A DNA stretch of 33,993 nt from Patescibacteria group bacterium. GTDB lineage: Bacteria; Patescibacteriota; Minisyncoccia; UBA6257; HR35. Location of the stretch: positions 1 through 33,993 of the forward strand of contig JBBTQG010000003.1 in assembly GCA_038065795.1 (NCBI GenBank). The letters run 5' to 3'. A program made the position numbers and the translations under genes. Below the pieces are notes generated by a model. It did not search any database. It was not told the DNA's origin and saw only the letters and a list, made by a program, of their open reading frames with translations. This document shows positions 3,226 through 33,768 of the stretch, piece by piece. Numbering within the stretch: position 1 is the stretch's first letter; each line of letters starts with the position of its first letter.

Positions 3226-4266
3226 TTACAACTTTTTTATTTTTCTGCGGATTTTTTCAATAGCAAAATTGAACCAGTATTTTTTGGAAAAGGCGTAATC
3301 CATTGCTGGAATAAATTTGAGTAATTCGCCACCAAATCCTTTTTTAAATTGTGTCAATCCCCACCATGGATGTTTTTTGTTTACTGATAACGTTATGCCC
3401 CAGAAATTATAATATTTACACCCAGCATTTTTTGCGTCTAATATTATTTGCCACTGAAGTTTGTGATTAATTGGTTCTTTTATTGGCAAGCTACCGCTAT
3501 GATGATAAAAAGCGATATTATGAGAATAAACAATCAAGGCGCAAGAAACAATTTTTCCTTCAACTTTTCCAAAATACAATAACGCCTTTTTTTCGTTTCC
3601 AAAAATTTCAAATTCTTTTTTTATGAGATTATATGAATATGGAGCGAATTCTTTTCGTTTTGCCAAGTCTTCATAAATTTTCCAAAACTCGTCAATTTTA
3701 GAAAGAGCTGTTGAACATTCAATTTCTAAATAAGGTTTTTTCATTGCATCATTAACCAATTTTTTATTTGTAGAAGTCATTTCATTTAATAACTCTTCCT
3801 CGCTTTTTTGTAAATTTTTTACCCACATATTTTCAGAAACAGAATATATCGGGGCAGGGCGGAACTCAATTTTTTTCAGCGCCGCAATATCATCGTCATT
3901 AAACAGCGTTGATGAATTTAATCGTATAAAAGCGTATCGTTTATGATAATCTTCTAATTTTAAAAATTTTATAATCTCAATAATTATGGAAGCGAATTGA
4001 TTTTCAATAATAATTTGTGTGCTTAATACTGGTCCGTGAGGAATAAGTAAAAAATTTCCACGCTTCGCCTTATATCCAATAATTTGACATACCCCCATTA
4101 AGTCAGCGTTAGTCTGCGAATTATAAATTTCCAATCGTAAAATTTCATGCCCTAAGCTTTTTTCAATTTCACCCCATTCAAAATCTTGTAAAAAACTTTG
4201 TGGCTGAACTTCATTTAAAAAATTATCCCAATTTTCCTTGTTGGCTGTTTTTTTTATTTTATACAT
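3226..4266 (-). CDS. FemAB/FemX-family tRNA-dependent peptidoglycan aminoacyl ligase
   Basis: SFLQDFEWG, IPHGP, YNFWGI...GLTQFKKGFGG. Confidence 0.88.
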   Translation of the reverse strand: MYKIKKTANKENWDNFLNEVQPQSFLQDFEWGEIEKSLGHEILRLEIYNSQTNADLMGVCQIIGYKAKRGNFLLIPHGPVLSTQIIIENQFASIIIEIIKFLKLEDYHKRYAFIRLNSSTLFNDDDIAALKKIEFRPAPIYSVSENMWVKNLQKSEEELLNEMTSTNKKLVNDAMKKPYLEIECSTALSKIDEFWKIYEDLAKRKEFAPYSYNLIKKEFEIFGNEKKALLYFGKVEGKIVSCALIVYSHNIAFYHHSGSLPIKEPINHKLQWQIILDAKNAGCKYYNFWGITLSVNKKHPWWGLTQFKKGFGGELLKFIPAMDYAFSKKYWFNFAIEKIRRKIKKL

Positions 4267-4343
4267 TTTTAATTTTTTATATTTTTTTTAATTTATTATT
4301 CCAATGTTTTTGAGAATTTAAGAATAGTTTTTTATACTTTTAT

Positions 4344-5675
4344 TTAATTGCTCTTTAAAATTTTAGCGATTAAACGCGCGTCTTCTTCTGTTGTGTTAAT
4401 ATTTGTTGGTAAATTATATGAGCTTAAAGCTAATTTTTCAGCATTAGGGCATTTTCCATAATAATATCCAAATCTATCCAATCTTTTTTGAACTGGCGCT
4501 AAAACAGATTTATACCAATGCCCGATGTAAATGTGTTCTTTTTTAAATTTTTCAATAATTTTTTGCGGTTTTAATGAAAACATTTGGTATCTTAAATAAA
4601 TTGGTTCGCTTTCTGGGGAGACATTTCCAAAATGAAACACTCCTTCTTTTTTATAAATATTAGCAAGGTGTTTTCTGTGCTCATTAAATTTTTCAAGTTT
4701 ATTCAATTGATTTTCTAAAATTTCAAAAAAAACATCAGGCATTTTTGAAATATATTGTTTTGTTATTAGCCCCCTTTTTTCTATTGGTTCAATTTCCAGA
4801 GACGAAAGTTTTAAGTGTTTTAATAAAAACATTAAAGATTTGCCGATGGAGGTGTAATATTTTTTAGCTTGCCATGAAATAATCCCGTGAATTAATTGTT
4901 TTCTTGTCCAAGATTTTGAAGGCTCTGGAAGTGTTTCATAAAATTTTTTAAATTGCTCGGAAAGTCTTTTGTTATTTATTACAAGCGCCCCGCCAATTAA
5001 ACTGCTTATTACTTTATTTCTGCCAAAACTTAATAAAGCAACATCGCCAAAGTTTCCTAAATATTTGCCGTCATATTTTGCTCCAAAAGAATGGGCTAAA
5101 TTTTCAATAACAAAAAGATTATTTTCTTTTGCGGTTTGTAGAATATTTTTATAGTCAGCAGGAAATCCGAAAGTATTTTGAATAATTAAAACGCCTGTGT
5201 CTTTGTCAATATTTTTTTTCAAATCTTCATTTGATATATTCGCGCTGTTTTCTTCAATATCAACAAAAACAGGAATACCTCCCGCGAATTTTATTGAATT
5301 GGCAACAACAAGACAAGAGTACCCTTGCGTTAAAACTTTTTTTCTAAAATTTTGTGCCAGATAAAACTTTAGAAACGCAGATAACGCGCCTCGCGCAGAA
5401 GAGAAAAAATAAAAATCTCCATTTGAAAAATAGCGTTTAAGTATTTTTTCAACATTTTCGCGTGAGCCTGTATTTGATTTATTTGAATTTGAAAATACAA
5501 ATTTTTTAACAATTTGAATATCATCTTTCTCAAAATTCGGCAAAAAATCAATGTGAACCCCGTTAAAAAATTTGGAATTACAGCTTAGTTCTTTCCGAAT
5601 TACTTTGTTCATTTTCTTAAATTTTACACCCTCAGGCGAATAATCTTTTTTAACGGGGTGAATTAAGTTTTTCAT
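4344..5675 (-). CDS. DegT/DnrJ/EryC1/StrS PLP-dependent aminotransferase family protein, with a 35-aa N-terminal insertion
   Basis: FSSARGAL, QNTFG, IENLAHSFGA, SFGRNKVIS (PLP lysine), CPNAE...NLPT. Confidence 0.88.
   Translation of the reverse strand: MKNLIHPVKKDYSPEGVKFKKMNKVIRKELSCNSKFFNGVHIDFLPNFEKDDIQIVKKFVFSNSNKSNTGSRENVEKILKRYFSNGDFYFFSSARGALSAFLKFYLAQNFRKKVLTQGYSCLVVANSIKFAGGIPVFVDIEENSANISNEDLKKNIDKDTGVLIIQNTFGFPADYKNILQTAKENNLFVIENLAHSFGAKYDGKYLGNFGDVALLSFGRNKVISSLIGGALVINNKRLSEQFKKFYETLPEPSKSWTRKQLIHGIISWQAKKYYTSIGKSLMFLLKHLKLSSLEIEPIEKRGLITKQYISKMPDVFFEILENQLNKLEKFNEHRKHLANIYKKEGVFHFGNVSPESEPIYLRYQMFSLKPQKIIEKFKKEHIYIGHWYKSVLAPVQKRLDRFGYYYGKCPNAEKLALSSYNLPTNINTTEEDARLIAKILKSN
5553..5662. 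mobile_element. MITE-like CCCCGTTA-family element, in frame in the aminotransferase gene
   Basis: 14-bp inverted repeat ACCCCGTTAAAAAA (5557-5570) / TTTTTTAACGGGGT (5646-5659). GTGAA direct repeats at 5553-5557 and 5658-5662 are 105 nt apart. Confidence 0.8.
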
Positions 5676-7213
5676 TTTATTATCTCAAAAATCCAATTTG
5701 GAACGCGACCTAAAATCAAAATCCCGCAATTTTCTTTTTGTAATTCGTTGTAAAAATTTTTAAATTTTTCTTCATCTATAATTTCCGTGTTGTTGAGATT
5801 TTCAGTGAAAATATCAGAAAAATCTTTGAAAGTTAAAAATACTTTATCGGTTTTTTTAAAAGTTTCAATTATATTTTTATAATAACTTTGCGTTTCAGCG
5901 CCCAATTCTAAAATCCCGGCAAAAATAATTATCTTCGTTTGCAATTCTAAATTTACAAAATATTCTGCGCCTTTTTGAACTCCTACAATATTTGCGTTAT
6001 ATGAGTCATCTATTATCAGCGGGTTTTCTTTTTTGGATATAGTATATGAATGTTGTAATAATTTTAATTCTTTAATTTTGTCTGTTAATTCATCGGGCTT
6101 GATTCCATTTAAATAACAACCAGCCATTACTCCAATTAAATTATCAATTTGTTGAGGAGTGATTAAATTAGTTTCAAATTCTGTTTCGCCTTCTGGATAA
6201 ACAAAAGTAAATTTTGTTCCATTTAAAGAATAATTTTCGTTTTTACTATAAAAATGACCATCTCTCCCATACAGATATTTGTTTGTGATATTTAATCCGC
6301 TAAAAATATCTTTTACTAATTCATCATCGCCGTTTAATATCGCAATTCGCGTTTGTTGTTCTCGCGCAAAAATTTCTAATTTGGTTTTAATAATTTTCTC
6401 CATTGAACCAAATGTTGCAATGTGTTGCGGAGCTAATCCTGTCAAATAAACAATGTCTGGTTCAAAAATATTCACAACTGTTTCAATATCTCCAACAATT
6501 CTCGCTCCCATTTCTAAAATTAAATAATCAATATTTTTTAAATCAGCGTCAATAACAAACTGCGTTAAGCCTATTTCAGCGTTTAAGCGCAGTGGCGATT
6601 TTAAAACTTTATATCTTACAGATAAAAGTTGAGCTAATAATTCTTTGGTTGTTGATTTTCCGTAGCTTCCTGTAATTCCAATTACTTTTCCGCCATTTTT
6701 TTTGAATTCAATAATTTTAGCGGTTGCTTTTTTGTGTAAAGGTTTTATAAAGATTTTTGTCAAGAAATTTGCGATAAAAGTTGAAATTAAAACAATAGGG
6801 AATTGTCCAATTTTTGCTAAAAGAAAAACGACAATCAAAAGATTTGTATTTGAATATTGAAGTATTCTAAAAATTAAAATTAAAAGCAAGGCGTTTATAA
6901 ATAAAAATTTTGGAGTCCATTTAAAACTTTTTAAAAATTCTTTGCGTTTGCTAAATAAAGCAATAACTAAAATTAAAGATAATAAACCCCAGATTGAGTG
7001 TATTGGAAAATTGGCTCCTGTTATCGCTATGGCTAAAAGAGCGAACCAAATCAAACCAATAACAATCTCGCGTTTTTCAAAAAATATTTTCCAACTTGAA
7101 GGTAAATCAAAATGCGCCCAAATTGACGGGGAAAAGTAGTCTTTAATCTGAATAATTTTCAGTAAAGGCAAACTCGTCCAAAGATAAATTATCAATGAAA
7201 TCAAAAGTGTCAT
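5672..7213 (-). CDS. murF: Mur ligase, MurF-like, with an N-terminal membrane domain
   Basis: GITGSYGKSTTKE P-loop, LEMGA, IIDDSYNAN, GILELG. Confidence 0.8.
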   Translation of the reverse strand: MTLLISLIIYLWTSLPLLKIIQIKDYFSPSIWAHFDLPSSWKIFFEKREIVIGLIWFALLAIAITGANFPIHSIWGLLSLILVIALFSKRKEFLKSFKWTPKFLFINALLLILIFRILQYSNTNLLIVVFLLAKIGQFPIVLISTFIANFLTKIFIKPLHKKATAKIIEFKKNGGKVIGITGSYGKSTTKELLAQLLSVRYKVLKSPLRLNAEIGLTQFVIDADLKNIDYLILEMGARIVGDIETVVNIFEPDIVYLTGLAPQHIATFGSMEKIIKTKLEIFAREQQTRIAILNGDDELVKDIFSGLNITNKYLYGRDGHFYSKNENYSLNGTKFTFVYPEGETEFETNLITPQQIDNLIGVMAGCYLNGIKPDELTDKIKELKLLQHSYTISKKENPLIIDDSYNANIVGVQKGAEYFVNLELQTKIIIFAGILELGAETQSYYKNIIETFKKTDKVFLTFKDFSDIFTENLNNTEIIDEEKFKNFYNELQKENCGILILGRVPNWIFEIIK

Positions 7214-7290
7214 AATATAATTTTAATTCAAAAATCAAAAGTATTTTAAATCCTAAAAATATGTTATAATTTAATATAGAAGTCTGTACG

Positions 7291-7509
7291 GTGCAACAAA
7301 AAAAGGAAGTGATTGACACGCAAGATGACATTTGTTTACAAGAAAGTCAATGGCGTCGTTGCTATGTGAAAGCATGCGTCAATAGAGCAACCAAAGTCGT
7401 TTCTGGCGATGGTAATAGGCGAGGCAGCATCTTGCTTTGCGGAGAGCATACCTTGAAAGATTATGAAAACTCGCGGGACTCCGTGGAGAGAATATGCACC
7501 GAAAGATAG
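7291..7509 (+). CDS. Small hypothetical protein with a possible Zn-binding motif
   Basis: CYVKAC...LCGEH; followed by a hairpin and T-run; start codon uncertain. Confidence 0.4.
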   Translation: MQQKKEVIDTQDDICLQESQWRRCYVKACVNRATKVVSGDGNRRGSILLCGEHTLKDYENSRDSVERICTER

Positions 7510-7544
7510 TCAGCGCCCGTTTTGTGTTGACTTGGTTGCGTAAG

Positions 7545-7581
7545 TTCATCGTGCGAGTTATTGTAGCGATGGACTTTTTTT
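7545..7581 (+). terminator. Putative intrinsic terminator
   Basis: AGTTCATCG...CGATGGACT stem followed by TTTTTTT. Confidence 0.45.
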
Positions 7582-7628
7582 ATTCCAATTTTTCATATGA
7601 GTATAACAAGTAGTTGAAAGATTGAGAA

Positions 7629-7737
7629 CCCCACACCAAACCCACTTGGCTAATTTATAAATTCTATACTTTTACTTTGCAAATAAAATGTACCGAATAA
7701 CTATAAATCTATATTTTTAAGCGTTTTGGTGCGTGGG
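7629..7737. repeat. ~110-bp element bounded by CCCACACCAAA/TTTGGTGCGTGGG; partial second copy at 18848-18910
   Basis: The reverse complement AATTTATAAATTAGCCAAGTGGGTTTGGTG matches AATTTATAAATTAGCCAAATGGGTTTGGTG near 18876-18905. Confidence 0.75.
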
Positions 7738-8487
7738 CGCCAAAAAGTTTTTTATGTATTCGGAGAAGGTTTTAGGGTCTTTTAGGTGAAAGCTGTGTCC
7801 TCCGGGATGAATTGTTATTTTTGCGTTCGGTAACAATTTTTTGATTTTTAATCCTTGATTTAGCGGAGTCATTGTATCGGTATTTCCCCACAAAACTAAT
7901 GTTTCAGTTTTTATTTTCGGTAAAATGTCCGTTAAGTCCTCTTCTAAAACATTTGACATTGTTTTCTGCATAATCGCAGAAAGTTTCGCATAATCGGAAT
8001 TTCTTACAAAAATTTTATAGAATATTTTTCTTAAAAATGGAAATCGCGCAAAAATAATTCTACCAATATTTTTAAATGATTCAAGATTGAAAAACAGGTT
8101 TTCGGAGTTTTTATTTTCGCGTATGCAAGCCGCGTTATACAGAACTAATTTTTTAACTTTTTCAGGATAAAGTTCCGCAAATTTAGCGGCAACTTGTCCG
8201 CCAAAAGAATGTCCTAAAATAGAAACAGTTGGATGCGGGAGGTGGGGAGTGAGATTGTCAATGTATTGATTTAAGTATTCTACGAAATCATTTAATTGCC
8301 AAGAATTCTCTGGTTGAGGATTTTGTCCAAACCCCGGAAATTCAATAATATGGACATCAAATTTTTTGCCGTTTTTCTTGCTAAATAGCAAGAAGGGTAA
8401 AATATTTTCATAATATTCAGCAATAGAATGTTCTTTGTCTCCGATATATTTTGTCACCCAGCCCGGAAGTATAATCAAAGTTTCCAT
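7717..8487 (-). CDS. Alpha/beta-fold hydrolase
   Basis: ILPGW, FPGFG, GHSFGG nucleophile elbow, WGNTD, GGHSFH. Confidence 0.92.
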   Translation of the reverse strand: METLIILPGWVTKYIGDKEHSIAEYYENILPFLLFSKKNGKKFDVHIIEFPGFGQNPQPENSWQLNDFVEYLNQYIDNLTPHLPHPTVSILGHSFGGQVAAKFAELYPEKVKKLVLYNAACIRENKNSENLFFNLESFKNIGRIIFARFPFLRKIFYKIFVRNSDYAKLSAIMQKTMSNVLEEDLTDILPKIKTETLVLWGNTDTMTPLNQGLKIKKLLPNAKITIHPGGHSFHLKDPKTFSEYIKNFLAPTHQNA

Positions 8488-8519
8488 AAAATTAATTATA
8501 ACCCGTTTAAAATCTACAT

Positions 8520-10679
8520 ATGACTTTAAAAGATTTAGAAATTCCGTTAAGAGAATTTAAAAGATTCGGCGATAAAACTATTGCTAATTTAGAGAAAGGC
8601 GGATTAAAAACCATCAGAGATTTAATTTATTATTTTCCATATCGTTACGAGGATTTGACAAAAGTTGTCAAAATTAAAGATATTATGGATTGTAATAAGG
8701 CTGGCGTTCAAGATGATAAAACAATTTTAGTTATTGGAGAAGTTAGTAATGTAAAAATTTTTCGTTCTCCAAGAAAAAAATTTATTATTGTGAACGCAAC
8801 AGTTACAGATGAAACTGGGAAATTAAGAATTATTTGGTTTAATCAATATTATCTCGCGCAAACTTTTAAGGACAATCCAAAAGTCGCTTTATGGGGAAAA
8901 TTATCAAAAGGCAAATACGGATTAAATCTTTCAAACCCACAATTTGAGAAATTAGAAGCTGGAAGTGGAATCCGCCAACTGGCGGAGGAAGTTGAATTTC
9001 AGCCGAGAATTTTGCCGGTTTATAGTGAAACGGCTGGAATTTATAGCTCATTTTTTGAGAAAAATATCAAAGACATTTTTGAGAATTATGAAATTGAAAA
9101 AATAAAAGACCCAATTCCGCAAAAAATACTTACGGAAATCCCAAATCTCAAATTCCAAATCCTAAAATTGGGTGAGGCGCTTGCGAGCATTCATAATCCA
9201 AAAAGTTTTGAGCAAATTAAGGAAGCGAGACATCTTCTTGCGTTTGAAGAAATTTTTTATATTCAGTTGCAACTATTAAAACGAAAAAAAAATGCAGTGA
9301 AAGAAAAAGCGCCAATTGTGAGCGTTGATAAAAAATTGGTAGATGATTTTTTGAGTAATTTTGATTTTGAATTAACAGGCGACCAGAATAAAGTTTTGGG
9401 TGAAATTTTAGATGATTTAAGGAAGCCATATCCGATGAATAGATTATTGCAAGGAGAAGTCGGAGCAGGGAAGACTTTAATTGCTGAAATCGCGGCATTA
9501 ATGCTTGTAAATAGTGGCTACCAAGTTTTAATGATGGCGCCGACTGAAATTTTAGCAAGACAACATTTTGGCAGAATTTTGGAAGATTTTTCAAAACTGG
9601 ATTTTGGAGTTGGTCTTTGGGTTTCAAAAGACGGATGCTATGGTCACCATGGATTTAGGGCAAAAAAATCTCCAACGGAAATTTTAAAAATGGTTTCGCA
9701 AAAAAGAATAAATTTTCTTGTCGGCACCCACGCTCTTCTTGAAGCAAAAACAGAATTTTCAGATGTTGGACTGGTAGTCATTGATGAACAGCAAAGATTT
9801 GGAATTGCGCAAAGAAAAAAACTTTTGAAATTATCATCACAGAAATTTTCACCGCATATTTTGTCAATGACAGCAACTCCAATTCCAAGAACACTCGCTC
9901 TTACTTTTTACGGAGACTTGGATTTGTCAATTATTCGGGAACGACCAAAAGAAAGAAAAAAAGTTGATACATTTATAGTGAGACCGGAAAAACGAGAACA
10001 ACTTTGGGGATTTGTAAAAAAGGAAATTGAAAAAGGGCATCAAACATTTATTATATGCCCCAGAGTTGAGGTTAGGGATGGGGCGATAGAAATGAGAAGT
10101 GAAATTAAAGCTGTAAAGGAGGAATACGAACGGATTAAAAAAATATTTCCCGAGTTTAATGTTGAGATGATGTATGGAAAAATGAAAGCAGGTGAAAAAG
10201 AAAACGCGTTGAAAAAATTACAAAACGCAGAAACGCAAATTTTAGTTGCGTCATCTGTTATTGAAGTTGGAATTGATTTGCCGCTAGCGACTGTGATAAT
10301 TGTTGAAGGTTCTGAAAGATTTGGATTAAGTCAATTACATCAATTGCGTGGAAGAGTCGGTAGGTCAATACATAAAAGTTTTTGTTTTTTGGTAATGGAA
10401 AATTATTCTTCAACAGCATATGAAAGATTAAAGGCTATTGTTAGGTCTGATAATGCATTAGAACTTGCAGAAAAAGATTTGGAAATTAGAGGGGCAGGGG
10501 AGCTTTTGGGCGAAAGACAATCAGGAGTTTCAGATTTGGCGATGCAGGCGTTGAAAGATGCTAATTTGGTTCAAATTGTAAAAGAATCTTCGGAAAAATT
10601 AATGGCAGAAAATCCAGAGTTAAAAGATTTGCCGTTACTAAGGGAGGAGATTGATAAAAGAGTGGATATAACAGGATAA
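8520..10679 (+). CDS. recG: ATP-dependent DNA helicase RecG
   Basis: MNRLLQGEVGAGKT, MAPTEILARQH, IDEQQRFG, MTATPIPRTL, QLHQLRGRVGR, DLEIRGAGELLG. Confidence 0.97.
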   Translation: MTLKDLEIPLREFKRFGDKTIANLEKGGLKTIRDLIYYFPYRYEDLTKVVKIKDIMDCNKAGVQDDKTILVIGEVSNVKIFRSPRKKFIIVNATVTDETGKLRIIWFNQYYLAQTFKDNPKVALWGKLSKGKYGLNLSNPQFEKLEAGSGIRQLAEEVEFQPRILPVYSETAGIYSSFFEKNIKDIFENYEIEKIKDPIPQKILTEIPNLKFQILKLGEALASIHNPKSFEQIKEARHLLAFEEIFYIQLQLLKRKKNAVKEKAPIVSVDKKLVDDFLSNFDFELTGDQNKVLGEILDDLRKPYPMNRLLQGEVGAGKTLIAEIAALMLVNSGYQVLMMAPTEILARQHFGRILEDFSKLDFGVGLWVSKDGCYGHHGFRAKKSPTEILKMVSQKRINFLVGTHALLEAKTEFSDVGLVVIDEQQRFGIAQRKKLLKLSSQKFSPHILSMTATPIPRTLALTFYGDLDLSIIRERPKERKKVDTFIVRPEKREQLWGFVKKEIEKGHQTFIICPRVEVRDGAIEMRSEIKAVKEEYERIKKIFPEFNVEMMYGKMKAGEKENALKKLQNAETQILVASSVIEVGIDLPLATVIIVEGSERFGLSQLHQLRGRVGRSIHKSFCFLVMENYSSTAYERLKAIVRSDNALELAEKDLEIRGAGELLGERQSGVSDLAMQALKDANLVQIVKESSEKLMAENPELKDLPLLREEIDKRVDITG

Positions 10680-10723
10680 TCGTTCGTTACTCTAATATTA
10701 CTAGGTAGCGGTGCATATTAGGG

Positions 10724-10751
10724 TTGATTTTCAAAAATAATATCTTATAAT
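10724..10751 (+). promoter_or_regulatory. Putative sigma70 promoter for an intergenic RNA
   Basis: TTGATT-N16-TATAAT. Confidence 0.45.
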
Positions 10752-10757
10752 TAAATT

Positions 10758-10935
10758 AGTAAACATTCTGCGGTGCGTCCTAGTTGTTCTGGCTCGTAAT
10801 GTGTCTTCCTAAATCCGAAATGGATGCAGGGCTCTTAGACACGACGCGCGAAGAACACAAGAGTCCCCGTGAATGGTTTACTGGGAAAGTTATAAGCGGA
10901 GTTGACTTGTCCTCCGACGCTTTCCTTTTTTTATT
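10758..10935 (+). ncRNA. Candidate structured ncRNA (rod-like; SRP- or 6S-like, unassigned)
   Basis: GC-rich stretch in an AT-rich spacer. Nested pairings TGTTCT/AGAACA, GTGTCT/AGACAC, TCCT/AGGG, ATCC/GGAT. 3' hairpin GGAAAG..CGGAG/CTCCG..CTTTCC followed by a T-run. Confidence 0.5.
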
Positions 10936-10970
10936 TTTTATAGAAAATTCTTTTAAAATTTCAAGATTGG

Positions 10971-12101
10971 TTATTTTTGTATTGCTTCTAATCCCGGTAA
11001 AGTTTCATTTGCTAAATAATTTAACATCGCTCCGCCACCAGTGGAAATAAAATCAAATTTGCTATGAAGCTTGTGTTTATATAAAAATGAAATTGTATCT
11101 CCTCCGCCAACGATTGTAAAATTTTTCATCCTTACTAGTTCTTTTGCAAACAATAAAGTTCCTGCTTCAGATTCTCCATCAGAAAGTTTTGCAAATGGTC
11201 CATTCCAAACAATAATGTCCATTTTTTTTAATCTTTTTAAAAATATTTTTATGCTTTTTAAGTCTGTGTCATCGTTGACTTTTTGCGGGATTAAAATTCT
11301 GTCATTTTCTATTTGGTGTGTTTCAGTAAATTCTTTTGCGGTTAATCCACCTAAAACAATCAAATCCGCTTTGTTTAAAAATTTTTTTATTAAAGGCAAT
11401 TTTGTTTCAATTTTCGCTCCACCAATCACAATCGCTAATTTATTATCACTTTCAAAAACTTTGTTTAAGTTCCTTATTTCATTTTCGAAATTTATTCCAA
11501 AATACGAAGGTAAAAATTTTGGGATTTCAATAATTGACGCGTGATTTCTATGGCTAACAGAAAACGCCTCATTTACAAAAACATCGGCAAGTTCGGATAA
11601 ACTTTTTGCAAATTCAATATCGTTTTTTTCTTCGCCTTCAAAAAATCTCAAATTTTCTAAAAGTATAAATTTATCATTAGGCAATGCCGAAAATGACGGA
11701 AATGACGAAAAATAAGTTTTCGTCATTTCCGTCGCTGAAAATGAATTATCATTTTCAGCATTATTTTTCGGCGCTAAAAACGACTTATCGTTTTTAGCGT
11801 TTTCTTCATACTTCCAATTCACAAACTTAAATTCTGGCAGATACGGAATAAATTTTTCCAAAGAATAATCTGCGTATCCACGTTGGTCAGCATATGGCGG
11901 TTGTCCTAAATGTGAAATGAAAATAATCTGTTTCGCTGATTCTAAGAATTTTAATAAATCTTTTGCAATTTTAATTCTGTAATTTTCAATCTGCGTAAAT
12001 CCGCATGTTTCAATATTGAGATCAACTCTCACTAAAACTCTTTTGTCTATAATTTTGTTTATATTCTTGCTTAATAAATATTTGTTATTTAGTTTTACCA
12101 T
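10971..12101 (-). CDS. pgk: Phosphoglycerate kinase, with in-frame repeat insertions
   Basis: RVLVRVDLN, ISHLG, LLENLRF, VNEAFSVSHRNHAS, GGAK, VWNGP, VGGGDT, ISTGGGA. Confidence 0.95.
   Translation of the reverse strand: MVKLNNKYLLSKNINKIIDKRVLVRVDLNIETCGFTQIENYRIKIAKDLLKFLESAKQIIFISHLGQPPYADQRGYADYSLEKFIPYLPEFKFVNWKYEENAKNDKSFLAPKNNAENDNSFSATEMTKTYFSSFPSFSALPNDKFILLENLRFFEGEEKNDIEFAKSLSELADVFVNEAFSVSHRNHASIIEIPKFLPSYFGINFENEIRNLNKVFESDNKLAIVIGGAKIETKLPLIKKFLNKADLIVLGGLTAKEFTETHQIENDRILIPQKVNDDTDLKSIKIFLKRLKKMDIIVWNGPFAKLSDGESEAGTLLFAKELVRMKNFTIVGGGDTISFLYKHKLHSKFDFISTGGGAMLNYLANETLPGLEAIQK
11685..11798. mobile_element. 114-bp multi-hairpin element (GCCGAAAA/GCTGAAAA family), in frame in pgk
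   Basis: Hairpins GACGGAAATGACGAAAA/TTTTCGTCATTTCCGTC, GCTGAAAATGA/TCATTTTCAGC and GCTAAAAACGA/TCGTTTTTAGC; a homolog lies at 29636-29731. Confidence 0.85.
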
Positions 12102-12172
12102 TTTACTTGATAGTATTATAATGCTAATCCTTGAACGGGCTTTAGCCCCATAACAAGAATTTATTTTTCAAT

Positions 12173-13672
12173 TTAATCATTTTGCATAAATCTGTATTGG
12201 ATTGCTTCGCCAATGTGTTTTGAATTTATTATTTTTTCATTTTCCATATCTGCAATTGTTCGTCCAACTTTTAAGATTTTATGAACAGCGCGCAAAGACA
12301 ATTTATAATTATCAACAGCTTTTTCAAGTATATTTTCAGCTGATTTTTCAGCATTGCAGTAAATTTTCATTTCTTTTGGAGATAACTCTCCATTATATTT
12401 GCCTTGCCTGTTAAATTGAAGAACTTTTAATTTTAAAATGTTTTGTTTAATTTTTTCAAGGTCAATTTTATTATCTTTAAAAATTTTCTCGCCCTCAATT
12501 CTTGGAACAAGCAAATATATGTCTAATCTATCCAAAATCGGACCAGAAATTTTTTTCTGATATCGGCGTATTTCCGAAGTTGAACAAGAGCATTCTTTTT
12601 CTTTGTCTTGATAAAATCCGCAAGGGCAGGGATTATAAGCGCCAATAAATAAAAAGTTTGTCGGAATTTTTAATCTGCGTTTAGCTCGCGAGATTGTAAT
12701 TTCTTTATTTTCAAGCGGTTCTCTTAATCCTTCCAAAACATCGCGTCTAAATTCTGGAAGTTCGTCTAAAAATAAAATTCCTCTATGCGCTAAACTTATT
12801 TCACCGGGTCGCGGAGAACTTCCTCCCCCTAAAATTGATACAGGCGAAGCAGTATGATGCGGATTGCGAAATGGAGGATAAAAAACAAACTCATCTTGCA
12901 ATTCACCGCAAGAACTATAAATCCCCGTAATTTCAAGAGATTCTTCGTAATTTAACGGCGGAAGTAAATGTGTAAGCGCTTTCCCAATCAAAGTTTTTCC
13001 TGTTCCCGGTGGTCCATAGAGTAAAAGATTGTGTCGTCCCGCGCCAACAATTTCAAGCGCCCTCCAAAGATGTGGCGGAAGTTTTAAGAAATCCAAATCA
13101 ATTTCCAGTGGCTTAGGATTAAATTTTTCGGATTTAATCGGAGGTTTTATTTTTATACCTTCAAGGAATTCAACAACTTCATTCAAATTTTCAAACGAAT
13201 AAATTTCAGCATCTTTTAAAAATCTGATTTCAAATTCATTTTGTGCGGGTATAAAAAATTTTTTAAATCCAAGCTTTGAAGCTTTGAGAATAATAGGAAG
13301 AACTCCTTGAATTTTTTTTAAATTTCCGTCAAGTCCAAGCTCGCCTAAAAATAACACCTTATCTAATCCAGAAAAACTGATTTGTTCCGATGCTTTTAAA
13401 AAACTAATTGCAATTGCTAAATCTAAAAGCGCCCCACCTTTTTTAATATCACCGGGAGCTAAATTGACAATTGTTTTCGCGTTGAATTTTAATGGAGGCT
13501 TTGCTTTAATTGATTTAATCGCAAGCGTAAGTCGTTCGCGCGATTCGCCGATGCTTTTGTCAGCAAGACCTACTATATTGAAGCTGGTCAATCCCTTCAA
13601 AAGTCCTGTTTCAATTTCAACAATTTGAGGTTCTATTCCGTCCAAGACCGCTGAAAAAGTTTTTGCAATCAT
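12173..13672 (-). CDS. comM: YifB/ComM Mg-chelatase-like AAA ATPase
   Basis: IVGLAD, VNLAPGD, GELGLDG, GPPGTGKT, PFRNPHH, GEISLAHRGILFLDELPEF, NPCPCG, SGPILDRLD. Confidence 0.93.
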   Translation of the reverse strand: MIAKTFSAVLDGIEPQIVEIETGLLKGLTSFNIVGLADKSIGESRERLTLAIKSIKAKPPLKFNAKTIVNLAPGDIKKGGALLDLAIAISFLKASEQISFSGLDKVLFLGELGLDGNLKKIQGVLPIILKASKLGFKKFFIPAQNEFEIRFLKDAEIYSFENLNEVVEFLEGIKIKPPIKSEKFNPKPLEIDLDFLKLPPHLWRALEIVGAGRHNLLLYGPPGTGKTLIGKALTHLLPPLNYEESLEITGIYSSCGELQDEFVFYPPFRNPHHTASPVSILGGGSSPRPGEISLAHRGILFLDELPEFRRDVLEGLREPLENKEITISRAKRRLKIPTNFLFIGAYNPCPCGFYQDKEKECSCSTSEIRRYQKKISGPILDRLDIYLLVPRIEGEKIFKDNKIDLEKIKQNILKLKVLQFNRQGKYNGELSPKEMKIYCNAEKSAENILEKAVDNYKLSLRAVHKILKVGRTIADMENEKIINSKHIGEAIQYRFMQND

Positions 13673-13686
13673 TTATTTAATTTATA

Positions 13687-13841
13687 CAAGGTGAGTAAAA
13701 TTTTCTCGATCATTGCAGTCGGTTCGCTCCAGCGGCGAACCGCTGCTCATCTCTCACCCCACCAACCGAGCACCATAAATGGTGCTCGGACCAATCTTGG
13801 CGGGGCTACGAGGCGTGCTCTCAAAAACTTTACTCACCTTG
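13687..13841. repeat. Composite nested inverted-repeat element (MITE-like)
   Basis: Terminal IR CAAGGTGAGTAAA/TTTACTCACCTTG encloses GGTTCGCT/GGCGAACC, CCCCACCAA/TTGGCGGGG and CCGAGCACCAT/ATGGTGCTCGG. Confidence 0.7.
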
Positions 13842-13857
13842 GATTATATGAAAATTA

Positions 13858-14338
13858 TAAGGCATAGAATAAGCCGGATTTTGTCTTGCCCCGCTTAGCG
13901 GGGTGAAGTAGTCATCTATCTAGCCATAAACTTGCGTTTATGGTCAAGCGGTACTCCCAGCACCATAAATGATGCTCGATACGACCTTGAACCCAGAACT
14001 CAAAAACCGCTACGGCAAAATTGCTTTTGCCGAGATGACGGTAGCAAAAGAATGAATGATTTCACACCCGTCAACTTTTCACCTTTTTTACTCCGCTAAG
14101 CGGAGTCGTAGTATTGTCTCTGTGATTTTTGTCAGACATTACTGCCTGCCTCCTTTTAGGGGGATTCACTCGCGCACCCTTTATACCATTATTACAAGGA
14201 GATATTACCGATAAAACAATGTGCCTTCATTAGATATAAAGGGTGCGCGATGGGTTTCCGGACTTTCCTCCTATCCGTAGTTTTTGTAAATTAAAAATTT
14301 ACAAAAACTACGGATAGGCGACCACTTTCCATACCTTA
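13858..14338 (-). ncRNA. rnpB: RNase P RNA (expanded, about 480 nt)
   Basis: Minus strand has GAGGAAAGTCCGG (P4 5' side), ACAGAGA and GGTGAAA conserved regions, and 3' GACAAAATCCGGCTTAT. P1 is TAAGGTATGGAA/TTCTATGCCTTA. Confidence 0.92.
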
Positions 14339-14520
14339 ATATAATTATATCCCATATATTTGCTTTTTACAATTTTTTGGGTATAATTTGAGTATCGTGG
14401 AAGTCAGTCCACGCAGTATTTAATATATTCATAAAATAATTAAAACGCCGAAAATAATTTATTATTTTTGGCGCTGAAATTTGAAAATGTTGAATTTTCA
14501 GATTTCAGCTTTACTGAAAA

Positions 14521-14931
14521 ATGCCGACAATACATCAATTAACAAAAAAGGGAAGAAAATCTAAGAAAAAGAAGCCAAAAGCCGCGGCGCTTTTGAGTGT
14601 TTATAATACTTTAAAAAGAAAAGAGAAATTTTTAGCATCTTCATTTAAGCGAGGCGTTTGTCTTAGGGTCTATACAATGACTCCCAAAAAACCAAATTCA
14701 GCCTTGAGAAAAGTTGCAAAAGTTAGATTGAGTAATGGCAAAGAAGTAACAGTTTATATTCCGGGAATGGGACATAGTTTGCAGGAGCACTCCATTGTTT
14801 TAATTCGCGGAGGAAGAGTGAGAGATTTGCCGGGAATAAGATATCATATTGTTAGAGGAAAATATGATACAACAGGAGTTGAGGGCAGAAAACAGAGTCG
14901 TTCTAAGTATGGCGCAAAAGCTCCGAAGTAA
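14521..14931 (+). CDS. rpsL: 30S ribosomal protein S12
   Basis: [38 protein letters not shown]. Confidence 0.99.
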
Positions 14932-14947
14932 TAAATTACTATAGAAA

Positions 14948-15433
14948 ATGAGAAAAAAATCAACATATAAAAAAAATTGGTCAGCTGACCCTGTTTTTAA
15001 TAGCATAGCTGTAACAAGATTTATAAATAATTTAATGATAGGTGGTGGAAAGGCGACTGCTCAGAAAATTTTTTATCAAGCAATGGATGAAATCAAAAAA
15101 CAGACAGATGAGAATCCTTTTAAGGTTTTTCAATCAGCTTTAAAAAATGTTGCGCCAAATTTGGAAGTTTGGGGAAGGAGAGTTGGTGGAGCTTCTTATT
15201 TGATTCCAAGAGTAGTAAGACCCGAGAGAAGATTTTCATGTGCTGTAAAATGGATTGTTAAGGCAGTTGTTAATAAAAAAGGAAAACCTTCGTATATTAA
15301 ACTCGCAGATGAACTCATTGCGGCAAGCAAAAATGAAGGTGGCGCTGTTAAGAAAAAAGAAGATGTTCACAAGCAGGCGGATATGAACAGAGCATTCGCG
15401 CATTTCGCTTGGTGGGGAAGGAAAAAGAGATAA
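14948..15433 (+). CDS. rpsG: 30S ribosomal protein S7
   Basis: ADPVFNS, RRVGGASY, KKKEDVHKQADMNRAFAHF; follows rpsL. Confidence 0.97.
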   Translation: MRKKSTYKKNWSADPVFNSIAVTRFINNLMIGGGKATAQKIFYQAMDEIKKQTDENPFKVFQSALKNVAPNLEVWGRRVGGASYLIPRVVRPERRFSCAVKWIVKAVVNKKGKPSYIKLADELIAASKNEGGAVKKKEDVHKQADMNRAFAHFAWWGRKKR

Positions 15434-15501
15434 ATCAAGAATCTCTATAATTTATTAAAAAATTTTACATCATTCAAAAAATTCTTTATAATAATAGAAT
15501 A

Positions 15502-15720
15502 ATGAATCGGGTTATAATTGCCGAAAAAGAATATCAAGATTTAAAAAAGCAAGCAAAAGCGTATAGAAATTTAGTTAGTAAAGTTTTTGAATCTGCAATA
15601 AAAGATCCAATTAGCGAAGTAGTTGATGATTTCAAAAAAACAAATTTTTATAGCGAGGATTTTTTGGTTGACCTTGAAAATGGTCTTAGAAAATCTTCTT
15701 ATTCAAAAACAAATCTATGA
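15502..15720 (+). CDS. Putative antitoxin
   Basis: 72 aa; 4-nt ATGA overlap with the downstream RelE-like gene. Confidence 0.6.
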   Translation: MNRVIIAEKEYQDLKKQAKAYRNLVSKVFESAIKDPISEVVDDFKKTNFYSEDFLVDLENGLRKSSYSKTNL

Positions 15721-15971
15721 TATTAAAGCCATTGAGGAAAGACCTCGTTGAATTTATTAAAAAGCATAGATTGACTAAAAAATGGTTAAAAGTAAAAAAA
15801 TTATTTGAGAGCAATAAAAATCACCCGTCATTAGATACAGAACTTTTAAACCCTAAATGGCGAGGTATTTACTCTCTTAGGATAGATAAAAGGTATAGAG
15901 CGCTATTTTTTATTATAAGCGCAGAAGAAGCAGAGATTTTTCTCCTGCAACCTATTGTGGTCGATTGTTGA
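15717..15971 (+). CDS. RelE/HigB-superfamily toxin (C-terminus possibly altered)
   Basis: HPSLDTELL...GIYSLRIDKRYRALF. Confidence 0.75.
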   Translation: MILKPLRKDLVEFIKKHRLTKKWLKVKKLFESNKNHPSLDTELLNPKWRGIYSLRIDKRYRALFFIISAEEAEIFLLQPIVVDC

Positions 15972-16082
15972 CCAGTTTGATTACTACTATAATTATATCA
16001 AACTATTAAAAATAAGTCAAGTTTTTGACATCGCTACGCTATTTTTAGATTTGGGTGGTTTTGTGGTATAATTTATAAGTCA

Positions 16083-16337
16083 ATGAAAGTGGTTTTTACT
16101 GGTCATTTTTTGAAAAGATTAAGCGAACGCAATTTAAATAAATTACAAGTTAGGGAAGTTATATTAAATCCCGATAAAATAGTCAAAGAAAAACCCAATA
16201 GATTTAGGGCTATGAAATTTATATCCAAAAACAATAAGCCGTTTTTGTTTATCGTAATTTATGATAAAATAAATAATAAAAAAGTTGAGGTTGTAACGGC
16301 TTTTTTGACGAGTAAGATTAAACGATACATAGATTAA
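16083..16337 (+). CDS. DUF4258-like putative toxin
   Basis: VVFTGHFLKRLSER...VILNPD...VVTAF; coupled to a DUF2283-like gene. Confidence 0.75.
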   Translation: MKVVFTGHFLKRLSERNLNKLQVREVILNPDKIVKEKPNRFRAMKFISKNNKPFLFIVIYDKINNKKVEVVTAFLTSKIKRYID

Positions 16338-16564
16338 TGAAAATTGAATACGATAAAAAATTAGATGCAATGTATATAAAATTTCTTGATGGAAATTATG
16401 TTGAAAGCGAAGAAGTTTCTGCTGGAGTGATTTTTGATTATGATAAAAAAGGCAAAATAATGGGCATTGAAATTTTAGACGCTTCAAAAAAATTATCAAC
16501 AAAAAAATCCAATCAAATTTTTAATACAAGCAAAATTTCCTTAGAACCATCGTATTCTACATAA
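16337..16564 (+). CDS. DUF2283-like putative antitoxin
   Basis: MKIEYDKKLDAMYIKF...IFDYDKKGKIMGIEILDAS. Confidence 0.85.
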   Translation: MKIEYDKKLDAMYIKFLDGNYVESEEVSAGVIFDYDKKGKIMGIEILDASKKLSTKKSNQIFNTSKISLEPSYST

Positions 16565-16683
16565 TAATAAGATTTACGCGTTAATATATTTAATTATTGT
16601 AAAATAATAAAGCATAAAATAACAAGTTGTTTTGGGCTTTAAAAAACAGATTTTTGACAATATTGTTATTTTAGGTTATAAAA

Positions 16684-18810: not shown

Positions 18811-18910
18811 TAAATCAACGCGTTATTGGTCGCGCTGAAAAAAAATTTTAAAAATATAAATTTGTAATTAAATAAAATTTATAAATTAGCCAAATGGGTT
18901 TGGTGCGTGG

Positions 18911-18950
18911 TCTTAATGTTGAATGCTATAAATAGCATTCAACATTAAGA
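18911..18950. repeat. Perfect 19-bp inverted repeat
   Basis: TCTTAATGTTGAATGCTAT-AA-ATAGCATTCAACATTAAGA. Confidence 0.9.
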
Positions 18951-19175
18951 TATAAAAATTTTGTTGAAAAATTGAAAAATAATTCAGCGAACTTAAGTAA
19001 AATGATGTTCGTTTTAATACTTAAGTAAAAATTAAAAATTTATACGGGAAAACACTGATAAATTGTGGCACATATAACATCAAGCGTTGGTGTTTTCAAA
19101 GAAATTACAAATGCTTGCATAAAAAATTAAATCAAAGATAGAATTCATTTTTTCGTATAATAATCTTATAAAAGT

Positions 19176-19610
19176 ATGAAAATAGGAAATAAGGGACAGC
19201 TTTTTTTGGAGGTTTTAATATCTTTGCTTGTTCTTTCAATAATTTTAGTGGGGGTTTTAAATATTTTATCCCTTACTCCTAAAATAGTTTTTTTCTCGGA
19301 AAAAAATCAAACTATTTCAAGTTTGCTTAATGAGTATATGAATATTGCGCTATCTTTTAGATATAAATATGACGATATAAAAAATTTAAGTTCTAGTCAA
19401 GACCATTATTTTGAAAAGTCGCAAGACGATTGGGCAGTTCATACAAATGCGCAAGAAACTATAATGGCAGAAGGAAATGCGTATAAAAGATATTTCAGGA
19501 TAGCTAATTATAGTGGTAGCGATTCAAAATTAATGACAATTTATCTGTCATCAACTTCAACTACGGAAAGTTTACAAATAATTATTACAGAATGGCAACA
19601 AGAAAATTAA
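19176..19610 (+). CDS. Type IV pilin-like (minor pilin) protein
   Basis: Class III signal-like NKG|QLFLEVL followed by a hydrophobic helix. Confidence 0.75.
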   Translation: MKIGNKGQLFLEVLISLLVLSIILVGVLNILSLTPKIVFFSEKNQTISSLLNEYMNIALSFRYKYDDIKNLSSSQDHYFEKSQDDWAVHTNAQETIMAEGNAYKRYFRIANYSGSDSKLMTIYLSSTSTTESLQIIITEWQQEN

Positions 19611-20485: not shown

Positions 20486-20883
20486 TAAAAAATAAAGCGC
20501 AAGTTTTCTTTGTTTTAATTGTTATTTTGCTTTTAATTACAGTCGCTCTTGCTATTATGTTCGGAGGAGTTTTGTATAGCGAAACAATAACTCAAAAGTC
20601 AAAATTAGAAACAATTAAAGCTGATGGCTTACAAATGTCTGCTGTAAATCTTGCCGTTAAGGAGCTTATTTCAAATTCGCAATTTCAATTACCAACAACA
20701 ACGGTATCTGGAATTTCATCTGGAAGCGTTGTATATTCTGTAAAAAGAATTACGCCAACAACTACAAGAATAAACGCAAAAGCGACATTTGGCAAAATTA
20801 TAAAAGATTCGCAAACAGTAGTTGTGTTTAGCGCTTCAAGTACAACAAGCACAATAATAAGTATCAATGTTAATTATAATTAG
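20482..20883 (+). CDS. PilX-like minor pilin
   Basis: NKA|QVFFVL hydrophobic N-terminus lacking E5; third gene of an overlapping trio. Confidence 0.6.
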   Translation: MIKNKAQVFFVLIVILLLITVALAIMFGGVLYSETITQKSKLETIKADGLQMSAVNLAVKELISNSQFQLPTTTVSGISSGSVVYSVKRITPTTTRINAKATFGKIIKDSQTVVVFSASSTTSTIISINVNYN

Positions 20884-20921
20884 CAAATTTTAGAATTAAT
20901 ATTTTAGCTCATATGGTGAAA

Positions 20922-21036
20922 TTGTCCTGTTAGAAATGCCGTGGTGGTGGAATTGGAAGACACGCACGGTTCAGGGCTGTGTGTCCGCAAGGATGTGTGG
21001 GTTCGACTCCCACCCACGGCATTTCTAACGGGACAA
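20922..21036. mobile_element. CCCGTTAGAAA-family inverted-repeat element carrying tRNA-Leu
   Basis: TTGTCCTGTTAGAAAT (20922-20937) / ATTTCTAACGGGACAA (21021-21036), 15/16 match with one G-U pair. Confidence 0.75.
20938..21021 (+). tRNA. tRNA-Leu(CAG)
   Basis: GCCGTGG/CCACGGC + A; CACGG-TTCAGGG-CTGTG; variable arm; GTGGG-TTCGACT-CCCAC. Confidence 0.95.
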
Positions 21037-21157
21037 GGGAGTTATCGCCGTACCGCCCAATAATATTCCGTATTTTTTGGGATAGTAGATTTAATAAAAT
21101 CTTTAATTTTTCGAAATTTATATCATCTTACACAAGCGAAAATCTGCTTTGTAAGTT

Positions 21158-23008: not shown

Positions 23009-23027
23009 CAGTTCAGAAAAAATTATT

Positions 23028-33659: not shown

Positions 33660-33768
33660 CCCCGTTAGAAAATGGAGGATTGGCAGAATGGTAATGCACT
33701 GGTTTCGAAAACCAGCGGGAGTAATCCCTTGCAGGTTCGAATCCTGCATCCTCCGTTTTCTAACGGGG
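33660..33768. mobile_element. CCCCGTTAGAAAA inverted-repeat element carrying tRNA-Ser(CGA)
   Basis: Perfect 13-bp IR at 33660-33672 / 33756-33768. Confidence 0.85.
33674..33755 (+). tRNA. tRNA-Ser(CGA), intact, nested
   Basis: GGAGGAT/ATCCTCC + G; CTGGT-TTCGAAA-ACCAG; V-arm GGGA/TCCC; GCAGG-TTCGAAT-CCTGC. Confidence 0.95.

Follow-up and report, generated by a model that had tools for sequence, protein, structure and literature searches.

A 101-bp hairpin-ended element probably inserted in frame near the start of a Patescibacteria aminotransferase gene, and its possible link to a small GIY-YIG nuclease

In the 33,993-nucleotide stretch analyzed here (contig JBBTQG010000003.1, hereafter the window), from the genome of a Patescibacteria group bacterium, an ultra-small organism of groundwater, a gene encoding a DegT/DnrJ/EryC1-family aminotransferase (4344..5675, minus strand; 443 aa) carries 105 extra bases close to its start. 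These are probably explained by a 101-bp non-autonomous, hairpin-ended element which inserted at a TGAA target with duplication of that target, and which is now read through as part of a disordered tail of the protein. The host gene is defined by its open reading frame, orthologs, a structure model and Pfam, with the DegT_DnrJ_EryC1 family spanning residues 52-439 (E 6.3e-39).

Target duplication and family alignment place the element, C-CCCGTTAAAAAA ... TTTTTTAACGGG-G, at 5558..5658. The perfect 14-bp inverted repeat recognized in the initial annotation was recovered as a left arm ACCCCGTTAAAAAA (5557..5570, plus strand) and a right arm TTTTTTAACGGGGT (5646..5659, plus strand), the latter being the exact reverse complement of the former; each arm overlaps a target copy by one base, A5557 closing the left TGAA and T5659 opening the right one. 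Sequence and family alignment set the two 4-bp copies of the duplicated target at 5554..5557 (TGAA on the plus strand, TTCA on the strand of the gene) and 5659..5662 (TGAA, plus strand). The GTGAA direct repeats noted earlier are likewise present 105 nt apart, at 5553-5557 and 5658-5662, but the 5-bp duplication proposed from the sequence is reduced to 4 bp (TGAA) once 46 and 80 copies of the family are aligned, with the G that opens the right-hand GTGAA assigned to the element as its final base; the size is accordingly 101 bp rather than about 103 bp.

The insertion totals 105 bp, lies 15 bases into the aminotransferase gene and is in frame. Codons 7-41 correspond to the element together with one of the two TGAA copies and encode 35 residues, PVKKDYSPEGVK...FFNGVH (PVKK...FFNGVH), within an N-terminus that reads MKNLIH-PVKK...FFNGVH-IDFLPNFEKDD. 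The host frame is free of stops through these 35 codons, and the 8 codons upstream and 403 codons downstream are also open; it is the only reading frame across the element, which holds no transposase gene of its own. Position 5675 is favoured as the true start of the gene because its ATG shares bases, as ATGA, with the stop of the Mur-ligase gene that lies upstream (5672..7213, minus strand). In the AlphaFold2 model of the aminotransferase (mean pLDDT 85.2), residues 1-37 fall below 50 and the remaining fold is confident, and on this model translation of the insert most likely yields a disordered stretch of the N-terminal tail.

A precise 35-residue gap had been predicted for orthologous aminotransferases, and it was observed in 17 of 18 full-length homologs from 18 related genomes, a set that excludes one homolog (L023) truncated by a contig end. 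These same 17 proteins have only 3-10 residues ahead of the conserved I/P-D-F..PNFE motif, as exemplified by the homolog start MKKLINIDLLPNF facing MKNLIH[35 aa]IDFLPNF in the host protein. Removal of the 35 codons, which had been expected to leave a clean N-terminus, yields MKNLIHIDFLPNFEKDD, which aligns with the homolog starts MKKLINIDLLPNFERDD and MIHIDLVPNFENDD, and the edges of the extra residues match the inverted repeat to the base. The homolog of genome G043 (L024) carries a decayed right family end (ATTTCTAATGGGA + TTCA) at the homologous codon, and its longest ATG-started frame opens within this remnant (MRGINKISNGIH-ISL). One contig of a metagenome run (X7) spans 4649-5744 and contains the element; in four runs (X7-X10, contigs over 4000-23900), no empty-site joint at 5553-5662 was present among the 15 joints listed (43 more are unlisted), a search whose reach is limited by the fact that metagenome contigs drop rare variants.

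Comparison of the ends supports the classification of the 101-bp element as a putative miniature, non-coding member of a hairpin-ended family bounded by YCCCGTTAGAAAT...ATTTCTAACGGGR. Its core CCCGTTA agrees exactly with the family ends YCCCGTTAGAAAT / ATTTCTAACGGGR, and both arms show the same 2 departures from the consensus within 12 positions (AAAAAA for AGAAAT). The interior showed no kin when the 101 bp were searched by blastn-short against the family loci and the whole genome, which returned 13-19-base words at chance level only; because the interior resembles no other copy, membership rests on about 13 bp per end, the duplication and the size. When up to 2 mismatches were allowed, the inverted-repeat motif matched 4 times in the window, compared with a mean of 0.99 in 100 dinucleotide-preserving shuffles, none of which reached 4; two of the four matches are the element's own arms, and the other two flank tRNA-Ser(CGA).

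Beyond the window, the motif CCCGTTAGAAA was found in 21 of the 61 genomes searched (host included), frequently in inverted pairs with a spacing of about 100 bp, compared with 0-3 occurrences per strand for the reversed-pattern control. Exact end pairs (core CCCGTTA.../...TAACGGG) are present in at least 122 GTDB genome stretches, most of them from Patescibacteria. An exact 4-bp direct repeat borders 23 of 46 copies from relatives, with 7 more showing 1 mismatch, and 52 of 80 copies retrieved across all GTDB species; shifted-register controls gave 0-4 of 46 and 0-3 of 80, respectively. Among the 52 exact duplications, TGAA is the commonest target (16), followed by TTCA (9), and the ends and target rule of the family can be written as T/C-CCCGTTAGAAAT with a 4-bp TNNA. 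Together, the dispersed family, its 4-bp repeats and the 17 empty sites among 18 homologs support the earlier proposal that the inverted repeat defines a mobile unit.

Many copies of the family coincide exactly with an ATG that opens a reading frame, as seen for 25 of 46 copies in the sample of relatives and, in the GTDB sample, for 42 of 48 copies ending in T...A. Since none of 30 copies ending in C...G is placed on a start codon so as to rebuild the ATG, start-codon placement defines a subtype and not the whole family. The 101-bp copy is of the C...G-ended kind, in which an ATG cannot be rebuilt; its last base is G and not A, and the copy does not occupy the start codon but lies 15 nt past the ATG.

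The host genome holds 7 end-paired units, namely the 101-bp element and six others. Two of them carry tRNA genes and lie in the window: T-CCTGTTAGAAAT ... ATTTCTAACGGG-A (20925..21033, plus strand), directly abutting tRNA-Leu(CAG) at 20937-21022, and C-CCCGTTAGAAAAT ... TTTTCTAACGGG-G (33660..33768, plus strand), abutting tRNA-Ser(CGA) at 33673-33756 and interrupting the anticodon loop of an outer serine-type tRNA, whose two parts lie at 33625-33659 and 33769-33822. Neither has a flanking duplication, as the initial annotation had correctly stated (3 and 4 mismatches out of 4). These two are the only tRNA-carrying units among 46 in the sample of relatives (ARAGORN), and none was found in 80 GTDB family units; a tRNA-derived origin of the 101-bp copy was dropped on these counts.

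A scan of the proteome for inserts bounded by PV[RK]...[SF]NG, as had been suggested, returned two more cases, both due to 29-bp copies in frame in the host genome: PVRNRISNGV in a MetRS gene, and PVRNPISNGAS in an epimerase-family gene, the latter being absent from all four nearest homologs. All three intragenic copies of this genome are open in the host frame; as we estimate from base composition, about 2% of random 105-bp inserts in DNA of 32% GC would keep the frame without a stop. A larger autonomous element was considered in genome G041 (L083) and rejected, the two lone ends there, 3.5 kb apart, enclosing ordinary genes and no transposase.

A full-length copy of 277 bp, T-CCCGTTAGAGAT...ATCTCTAACGGG-A, is located on another contig of the same genome (G000:C43:8328-8604) and is flanked by a TTCA/TGAA duplication; this putative autonomous partner had escaped the initial annotation. 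Its only gene is an ORF of 94 aa, MNPVRDNKIYYVYLLQ...FLSLTG, encoding a GIY-YIG nuclease of the UPF0213 type; the ORF reads through both element ends, with its ATG and TGA supplied by the duplicated target. The protein scores 68 bits against the GIY-YIG family PF01541, and its nearest solved structures are 1zg2 (E 3.6e-12) and 1ywl, both UPF0213 proteins; TIGR01453, a model of group I intron endonucleases, is matched weakly (27.9 bits; cut-off 56). A second GIY-YIG-coding copy, with a variant end, was found in genome G035. Among the best 120 of 2815 homologs, 87 begin with M.PV[RK] and 97 finish with [LF][TS]G, which correspond to the translated element ends; a look at 13 small GIY-YIG genes from 5 genomes showed the family ends in only 2. 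To our knowledge, GIY-YIG proteins are known as nucleases and not as strand-transfer enzymes. By association, we infer that this nuclease is linked to the mobility of the element.

The same DNA insertion could be read with translation starting at the ATG inside the element (Met22, MNKVIRKEL...; 5610..5612, minus strand), as located from sequence and ORF, giving a 20-residue leader and turning the first 21 codons into a short upstream frame. Both the presence of this in-frame ATG (5612-5610) and the G043 homolog, whose longest ATG-started frame opens inside the family remnant, are consistent with such a start. However, the original ATG retains its overlap with the upstream stop, the usual layout for coupled translation, the frame remains open from it, and the internal ATG has its nearest GAGG 17 nt upstream, a long spacing for a Shine-Dalgarno sequence, making an internal start unlikely. 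Considerably less probable still is that the insert is lost at the RNA stage, the element being removed as an intron-like helix-bounded insert or skipped by ribosome bypass between the TTCA words, to give a mature protein devoid of the 35 residues. Known bypass elements have identical words at their take-off and landing sites, identical words also border this insert, and a sister copy occupies a tRNA anticodon loop, a classic intron position. The ends can moreover be paired into an RNA stem of 13-14 bp (MFE -24.7 kcal/mol), but this fold barely beats shuffled sequences (z -1.68; 13 of 200 shuffles fold as well), no Rfam family reached the gathering score on the element, and none was found for nine related copies at E up to 1. 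Neither the RtcB ligase (PF01139) nor the tRNA-intron endonuclease (PF01974) was found in the 99.6%-complete genome. Removal from the RNA is further opposed by the 4-bp duplications, which are a signature of DNA insertion, by the in-frame and stop-free nature of the insert, which would be unnecessary if it were excised, and by the gene of the full-length element, which reads through both ends and thereby suggests that the ends are built to be translated.

We regard as most improbable that no mobile DNA is involved, i.e. that the 35 residues are an N-terminal extension specific to the lineage, with an inverted repeat that is either accidental or a local regulatory hairpin. Such an extension would fit the unique interior and the arms, which outside CCCCG are A/T-rich in a genome of 32% GC. 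It is at odds with the motif count, equalled in 0 of 100 shuffles, with the recurrence of the same core ends around six other units of the genome and hundreds beyond it, with the flanking TGAA, the modal target of the family, and with the base-precise coincidence of the repeat with the boundaries of the extra residues.

Taken together, these results favour insertion of a miniature element that is read through in the N-terminal tail, and suggest a model in which a miniature copy landed at TGAA, 15 nt inside the aminotransferase gene, with 4 bp duplicated. The GIY-YIG nuclease may have acted in trans on the shared ends to move this copy, and the 4-bp duplication would imply a cut with a 4-nt stagger at the target followed by fill-in. 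The copy presumably survived because element and duplication together make 35 codons, contain no in-frame stop and lie ahead of the first conserved motif; an insertion of this kind would result in a disordered N-terminal stretch of 35 residues and leave the enzyme otherwise intact.

More tentatively, and with somewhat less than even confidence, we propose a class of bacterial transposable elements, undescribed in the literature searched, that would owe its mobility to a single enzyme, the 94-residue GIY-YIG protein. If so, the element, having neither a start nor a stop codon of its own, would land on A|TGAA at the start codon of a host gene, where the upstream copy of the target would become the ATG of the element and the downstream copy would provide both its TGA and the rebuilt ATG of the host. 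The space between the 13-bp ends could then be emptied, as in the 29-bp copies, be taken up by unrelated filler, as in the 101-bp copy, or hold a whole tRNA gene, and in-frame copies would regularly supply essential genes of these ultra-small bacteria with new peptide segments.

Rickettsia palindromic elements are short palindromic repeats that occur in frame in unrelated housekeeping genes of a reduced genome, where they are kept as extra peptide (PMC10969869). As far as these elements are described there, the 101-bp copy resembles them in being in frame in a protein gene and leaving the frame open. In contrast, and going by those same descriptions, the present family belongs to another phylum and shows a clear 4-bp duplication, 13-bp ends and a GIY-YIG-coding partner, and most of its members are situated on start codons and not inside genes. 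Known MITEs are linked to classical transposases, of the DDE or other types, whereas the sole gene found here between the same ends encodes a 94-residue GIY-YIG nuclease and has its start and stop codons supplied by the duplicated target. The likeness to MITEs (Neisseria Correia elements, ERIC, RUP) otherwise extends to terminal repeats, duplication, small size, dispersed copies and empty sites. Bacterial MITEs are described as short (30-350 bp), co-transcribed with neighbouring genes and dispersed in many copies, with terminal inverted repeats and a short target duplication, and the same review makes no mention of GIY-YIG, start codons or Candidate Phyla (PMC10969869).

The GIY-YIG catalytic domain (PF01541) is shared with free-standing homing endonucleases of the phage T4 Seg/Mob type and with UPF0213/YhbQ-like proteins. 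Compared with homing endonucleases, the partner protein has, at 94 residues, no room for a separate DNA-binding domain, and copies of the family are found at many unrelated sites and not at one cognate allele. We know of no homing endonuclease genes that are bounded by inverted repeats or flanked by a 4-bp duplication, whereas the gene described here has both. In the literature searched on GIY-YIG/UPF0213 proteins, miniature elements and Patescibacteria, consisting mainly of abstracts, no description of the hairpin-ended family was found.

The ends together with the target rule provide a simple flag for insertions of this type, which are otherwise called as odd N-termini, split genes or extra loops. 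If the GIY-YIG protein is indeed the mobility enzyme, its transposition mechanism would lie beyond the known DDE, tyrosine, serine and HUH classes. The in-frame insertions show how residues get added to conserved enzymes. Overall, a single genome holds every stage of the family, from the nuclease-coding full-length copy to 100-bp miniatures, 29-bp bare hairpins, tRNA-carrying units and three in-frame intragenic copies, and is therefore a good place to study the spread of a very small selfish element in genomes with almost no spare DNA.

The Patescibacteria genome from which the window derives (G000; 581 kb, 32% GC, 99.6% complete, 56 contigs, the window being contig C3) encodes on the minus strand, at 4344..5675, a 443-aa ORF reading MKNLIH-PVKKDYSPEGVKFKKMNKVIRKELSCNSKFFNGVH-IDFLPNFEKDD..., whose product is a DegT/DnrJ/EryC1 aminotransferase (Pfam, residues 52-439, E 6.3e-39) and whose ATG forms an ATGA overlap with the stop codon of the Mur-ligase gene lying upstream. 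The initial annotation had proposed that an inverted repeat with a 5-bp target duplication delimits a mobile unit within this gene. We confirmed the inverted repeat: ACCCCGTTAAAAAA occupies 5557-5570 and is matched at 5646-5659 by its exact reverse complement; the arm has four matches in the window (≤2 mismatches), compared to a mean of 0.99 in 100 shuffles, none of which reached four. The direct repeat of GTGAA (5553-5557 and 5658-5662, spacing 105 nt) is likewise present; its length, however, had to be revised after alignment with the family of elements ending in CCCG...CGGG. According to this family structure, the duplicated target is the 4-bp TGAA (5554-5557 and 5659-5662), the fifth base being the terminal G of the 101-bp element C-CCCG...CGGG-G (5558-5658). 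Our copy is a C...G-ended element, positioned 15 nt inside the aminotransferase gene.

A protein search in 61 genomes (G000, 24 of the same family and 36 of the same order) matched the aminotransferase in 38. Of the 19 best loci outside G000, we excluded L023, which is truncated at the end of its contig; in 17 of the 18 remaining full-length homologs 3-10 residues precede the conserved I/P-D-F..PNFE..DD motif (e.g. MKKLINIDLLPNFERDD, MIHIDLVPNFENDD and MKKLISPDFFPNFEKDD). The precise 35-aa gap predicted for orthologs was observed in all 17 of these short-leader proteins, which lack the segment, and the expected clean N-terminus was recovered as well, since our protein without codons 7-41 (MKNLIHIDFLPNFEKDD) lines up with them (alignment A1). 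The exception, a homolog with 38% identity from G043, which belongs to a different family of the order, carries a 12-residue leader, MRGINKISNGIH; here (L024, G043:C39, ~2715-2740, gene strand) the codon corresponding to our insertion site shows ATTTCTAATGGGA followed by TTCA, which looks like a right end of this element family that has decayed. We tentatively read this remnant as an independent hit, the left end being too decayed for certainty, which suggests that this site has been hit repeatedly.

Together, element and duplication add 35 codons (105 bp) that are free of stops in the frame of the gene; by our arithmetic from base composition, a random insert of this size would be in frame and open with a chance of ∼2%. 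Downstream of the insert, inspection of the sequence revealed no in-frame ATG, GTG or TTG ahead of the conserved IDF, which leaves 5675 and the internal ATG (5612-5610) as the sole possible translation starts. AlphaFold2 on alignment A1 returned a mean pLDDT of 85.2 and a pTM of 0.85, residues 1-37 scoring below 50 and the remainder being confident. The element ends form base pairs as RNA as well as single-stranded DNA, the whole fold being only slightly better than that of shuffles (RNA, -24.7 kcal/mol, z -1.68; DNA, -13.1 kcal/mol, z -2.18). Evidence against removal of the element at the RNA level comes from the absence of any match to Rfam families, from the lack of both RtcB and the tRNA-intron endonuclease in G000, and from the nuclease gene described below, which is translated through the ends. 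The extra segment is inserted DNA accompanied by a duplication of 4 bp, and the inverted repeat bounds a mobile unit, as originally proposed.

The proposed test for PV[RK]...[SF]NG-bounded insertions yielded, as anticipated, two more in-frame inserts in G000, both encoded by bare 29-bp hairpins. PVRNRISNGV (C32:5640-5668, TCAA duplication) lies in a gene assigned by Pfam to the class I (Met) tRNA synthetases, 6 codons before its end. PVRNPISNGAS (C50:23817-23845) occupies codon 112 of a 323-codon NAD-dependent epimerase-family gene, which reads CVY-PVRNPISNGAS-PK compared to C.Y-PK in 4/4 nearest homologs; these 11 residues directly past the conserved S-C-x-Y motif are in a position less obviously tolerable than an N-terminal tail. 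Additional copies in G000 comprise a 112-bp unit at a stop codon (C56:24615-24726, TCAA duplication), a truncated GIY-YIG frame preceded by a left end (C56:16437 onwards) and the two tRNA-carrying units of the window.

One of the latter (33660-33768), carrying tRNA-Ser(CGA), has no flanking duplication and splits a long-variable-arm tRNA (33625-33822; acceptor GGCGAGG/CCTCGCC, discriminator G) in the anticodon loop, leaving outer halves at 33625-33659 and 33769-33822. Ser(CGA) is also the probable former identity of the outer gene, because the left flank CTCG matches a CGA anticodon loop from position 32 to 35; an unbroken tRNA-Ser(UGA) with an identical acceptor stem is present in the related genome G004. 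ARAGORN and the Rfam tRNA model detected neither tRNA-Ser(UGA) nor tRNA-Gly(UCC) in the whole of G000, even though the commonest codons in its 248 long ORFs are UCA (2453/7611 Ser) and GGA (3536/7083 Gly); either disruption or gaps in the assembly may account for the missing genes. With introns allowed, ARAGORN placed the sole tRNA-Asn found in G000, tRNA-Asn(GTT), at C40:82-399 (minus) with a 243-nt anticodon-loop insert. The RNase P RNA match at 13854-14338 of the window (minus) spans 485 nt for a 367-position model and includes a perfect hairpin (14270-14318, arms of 23 bp), possibly another insertion.

The core CCCGTTAGAAA was found in 21/61 genomes, frequently as inverted pairs ∼100 bp apart: it is present in 20/36 genomes from other families of the order, with up to 24 arms in G035, and in 0/24 same-family genomes other than G000 (reversed-pattern control, 0-3 per strand). 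Aligned on CCCG...CGGG, 46 end-paired units (39 distinct ones from relatives and 7 from G000) share the structure [NNNN]-Y-CCCGTTAGAAAT...ATTTCTAACGGG-R-[NNNN], with outermost bases T...A in 31 and C...G in 12. Their flanking 4-mers are identical in 23/46 and differ by one mismatch in 7 more, shifted registers giving 0-4/46. Scanning one GTDB genome per species for exact arm pairs 75-105 nt apart returned at least 122 stretches, the matches listed including many CPR lineages (Nomura-, Saccharibacteria, Kaiser-, Doudna-, Yanofsky-, Kazan and others). An exact 4-bp repeat flanks 52/80 loci examined (shifted controls, 0-3/80), most commonly TGAA (16) and TTCA (9). By ends, target and size, our copy belongs to this family; its interior is an orphan in similarity searches. 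A few exact end pairs occur in MAGs labelled outside CPR (L125, L135, L154, L158, L161, L175, L180, L182, L184, L186, L193 and L199; Deltaproteobacteria, Planctomycetia, Sedimentisphaerales, Gammaproteobacteria, Nitrospirae, Omnitrophota, Phycisphaerae, Pirellulales, Thermodesulfobacteriota, Syntrophorhabdus), which could reflect spread beyond CPR or binning contamination.

Among the 46 units, 25 sit exactly on a start codon that is rebuilt by the terminal base of the element and opens a frame of 60 codons or more. Similarly, 42/48 T...A-ended units of the GTDB sample lie on an ATG with at least 50 open codons after it. None of the 30 C...G-ended units of the same sample does so, as their G end dictates: 19 are not traversed by any open frame, 2 are embedded in ORFs in frame, another 4 are open close to one end of an ORF, and the other 5 are open but have short flanks only.

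G000 also harbors a nuclease-coding full-length copy. One of its eight PF01541 matches, on contig C43, is enclosed by ends of our element's family (277 bp including the terminal T and A) and reads on the gene strand ...TTTA-ATGAA-T-CCCGTTAGAGAT...ATCTCTAACGGG-ATGAAAAAATTAGCC... Its 94-codon frame begins at the upstream ATGAA, which serves as the host start codon and belongs to the duplicated target, translates the left end as Pro-Val-Arg and terminates as ...Ser-Leu-Thr-Gly-TGA, this TGA being the downstream target copy that overlaps the rebuilt host ATG (GGG-ATGA). The closest solved structures are the UPF0213 proteins 1zg2 (E 3.6e-12) and 1ywl. Among the best 120 representatives of 2815 homologs (E ≤1e-5), 87 begin with M.PV[RK] (exactly MNPVRD in 56) and 97 end in [LF][TS]G (FLSLTG in 85), indicating that read-through of both ends with a borrowed ATGAA is general for this protein and not peculiar to a single copy. 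G035 contains another full-length copy, which has the variant end CCCGTACGAAAT. Of 13 small GIY-YIG genes examined in 5 genomes, 2 have family ends, 4 have unrelated inverted repeats and 7 have none found by our script.

Small GIY-YIG frames also occur in the window at 32490-32699 (between tRNA-Val and tRNA-Thr) and 33369-33578 (just upstream of the split tRNA-Ser), both devoid of family ends and preceded by partial 5' tRNA copies starting near 32391 and 33225. On C40, a partial second tRNA copy, with a ∼30-nt GC-rich double hairpin between anticodon-loop positions, lies just downstream of tRNA-Cys (17059-17130, minus strand) and is adjoined by a GIY-YIG frame (17191-17397).

These observations are compatible with a model in which the GIY-YIG protein would work on the shared ends in trans and insertion would be followed by filling in of a staggered 4-nt break at TNNA; the DNA might be joined, at a guess, by host repair or by cutting of the extruded hairpin. 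Our copy would have persisted because the frame was kept and the site precedes the first conserved motif. We found no published description of the family in the literature searched, and a MITE review (PMC10969869) mentions neither GIY-YIG nor start codons. That review describes in-frame insertion of RPEs in housekeeping genes, a behavior which our family shares, as it does that of MITEs in general; it differs from both by its partner gene and its start-codon logic.
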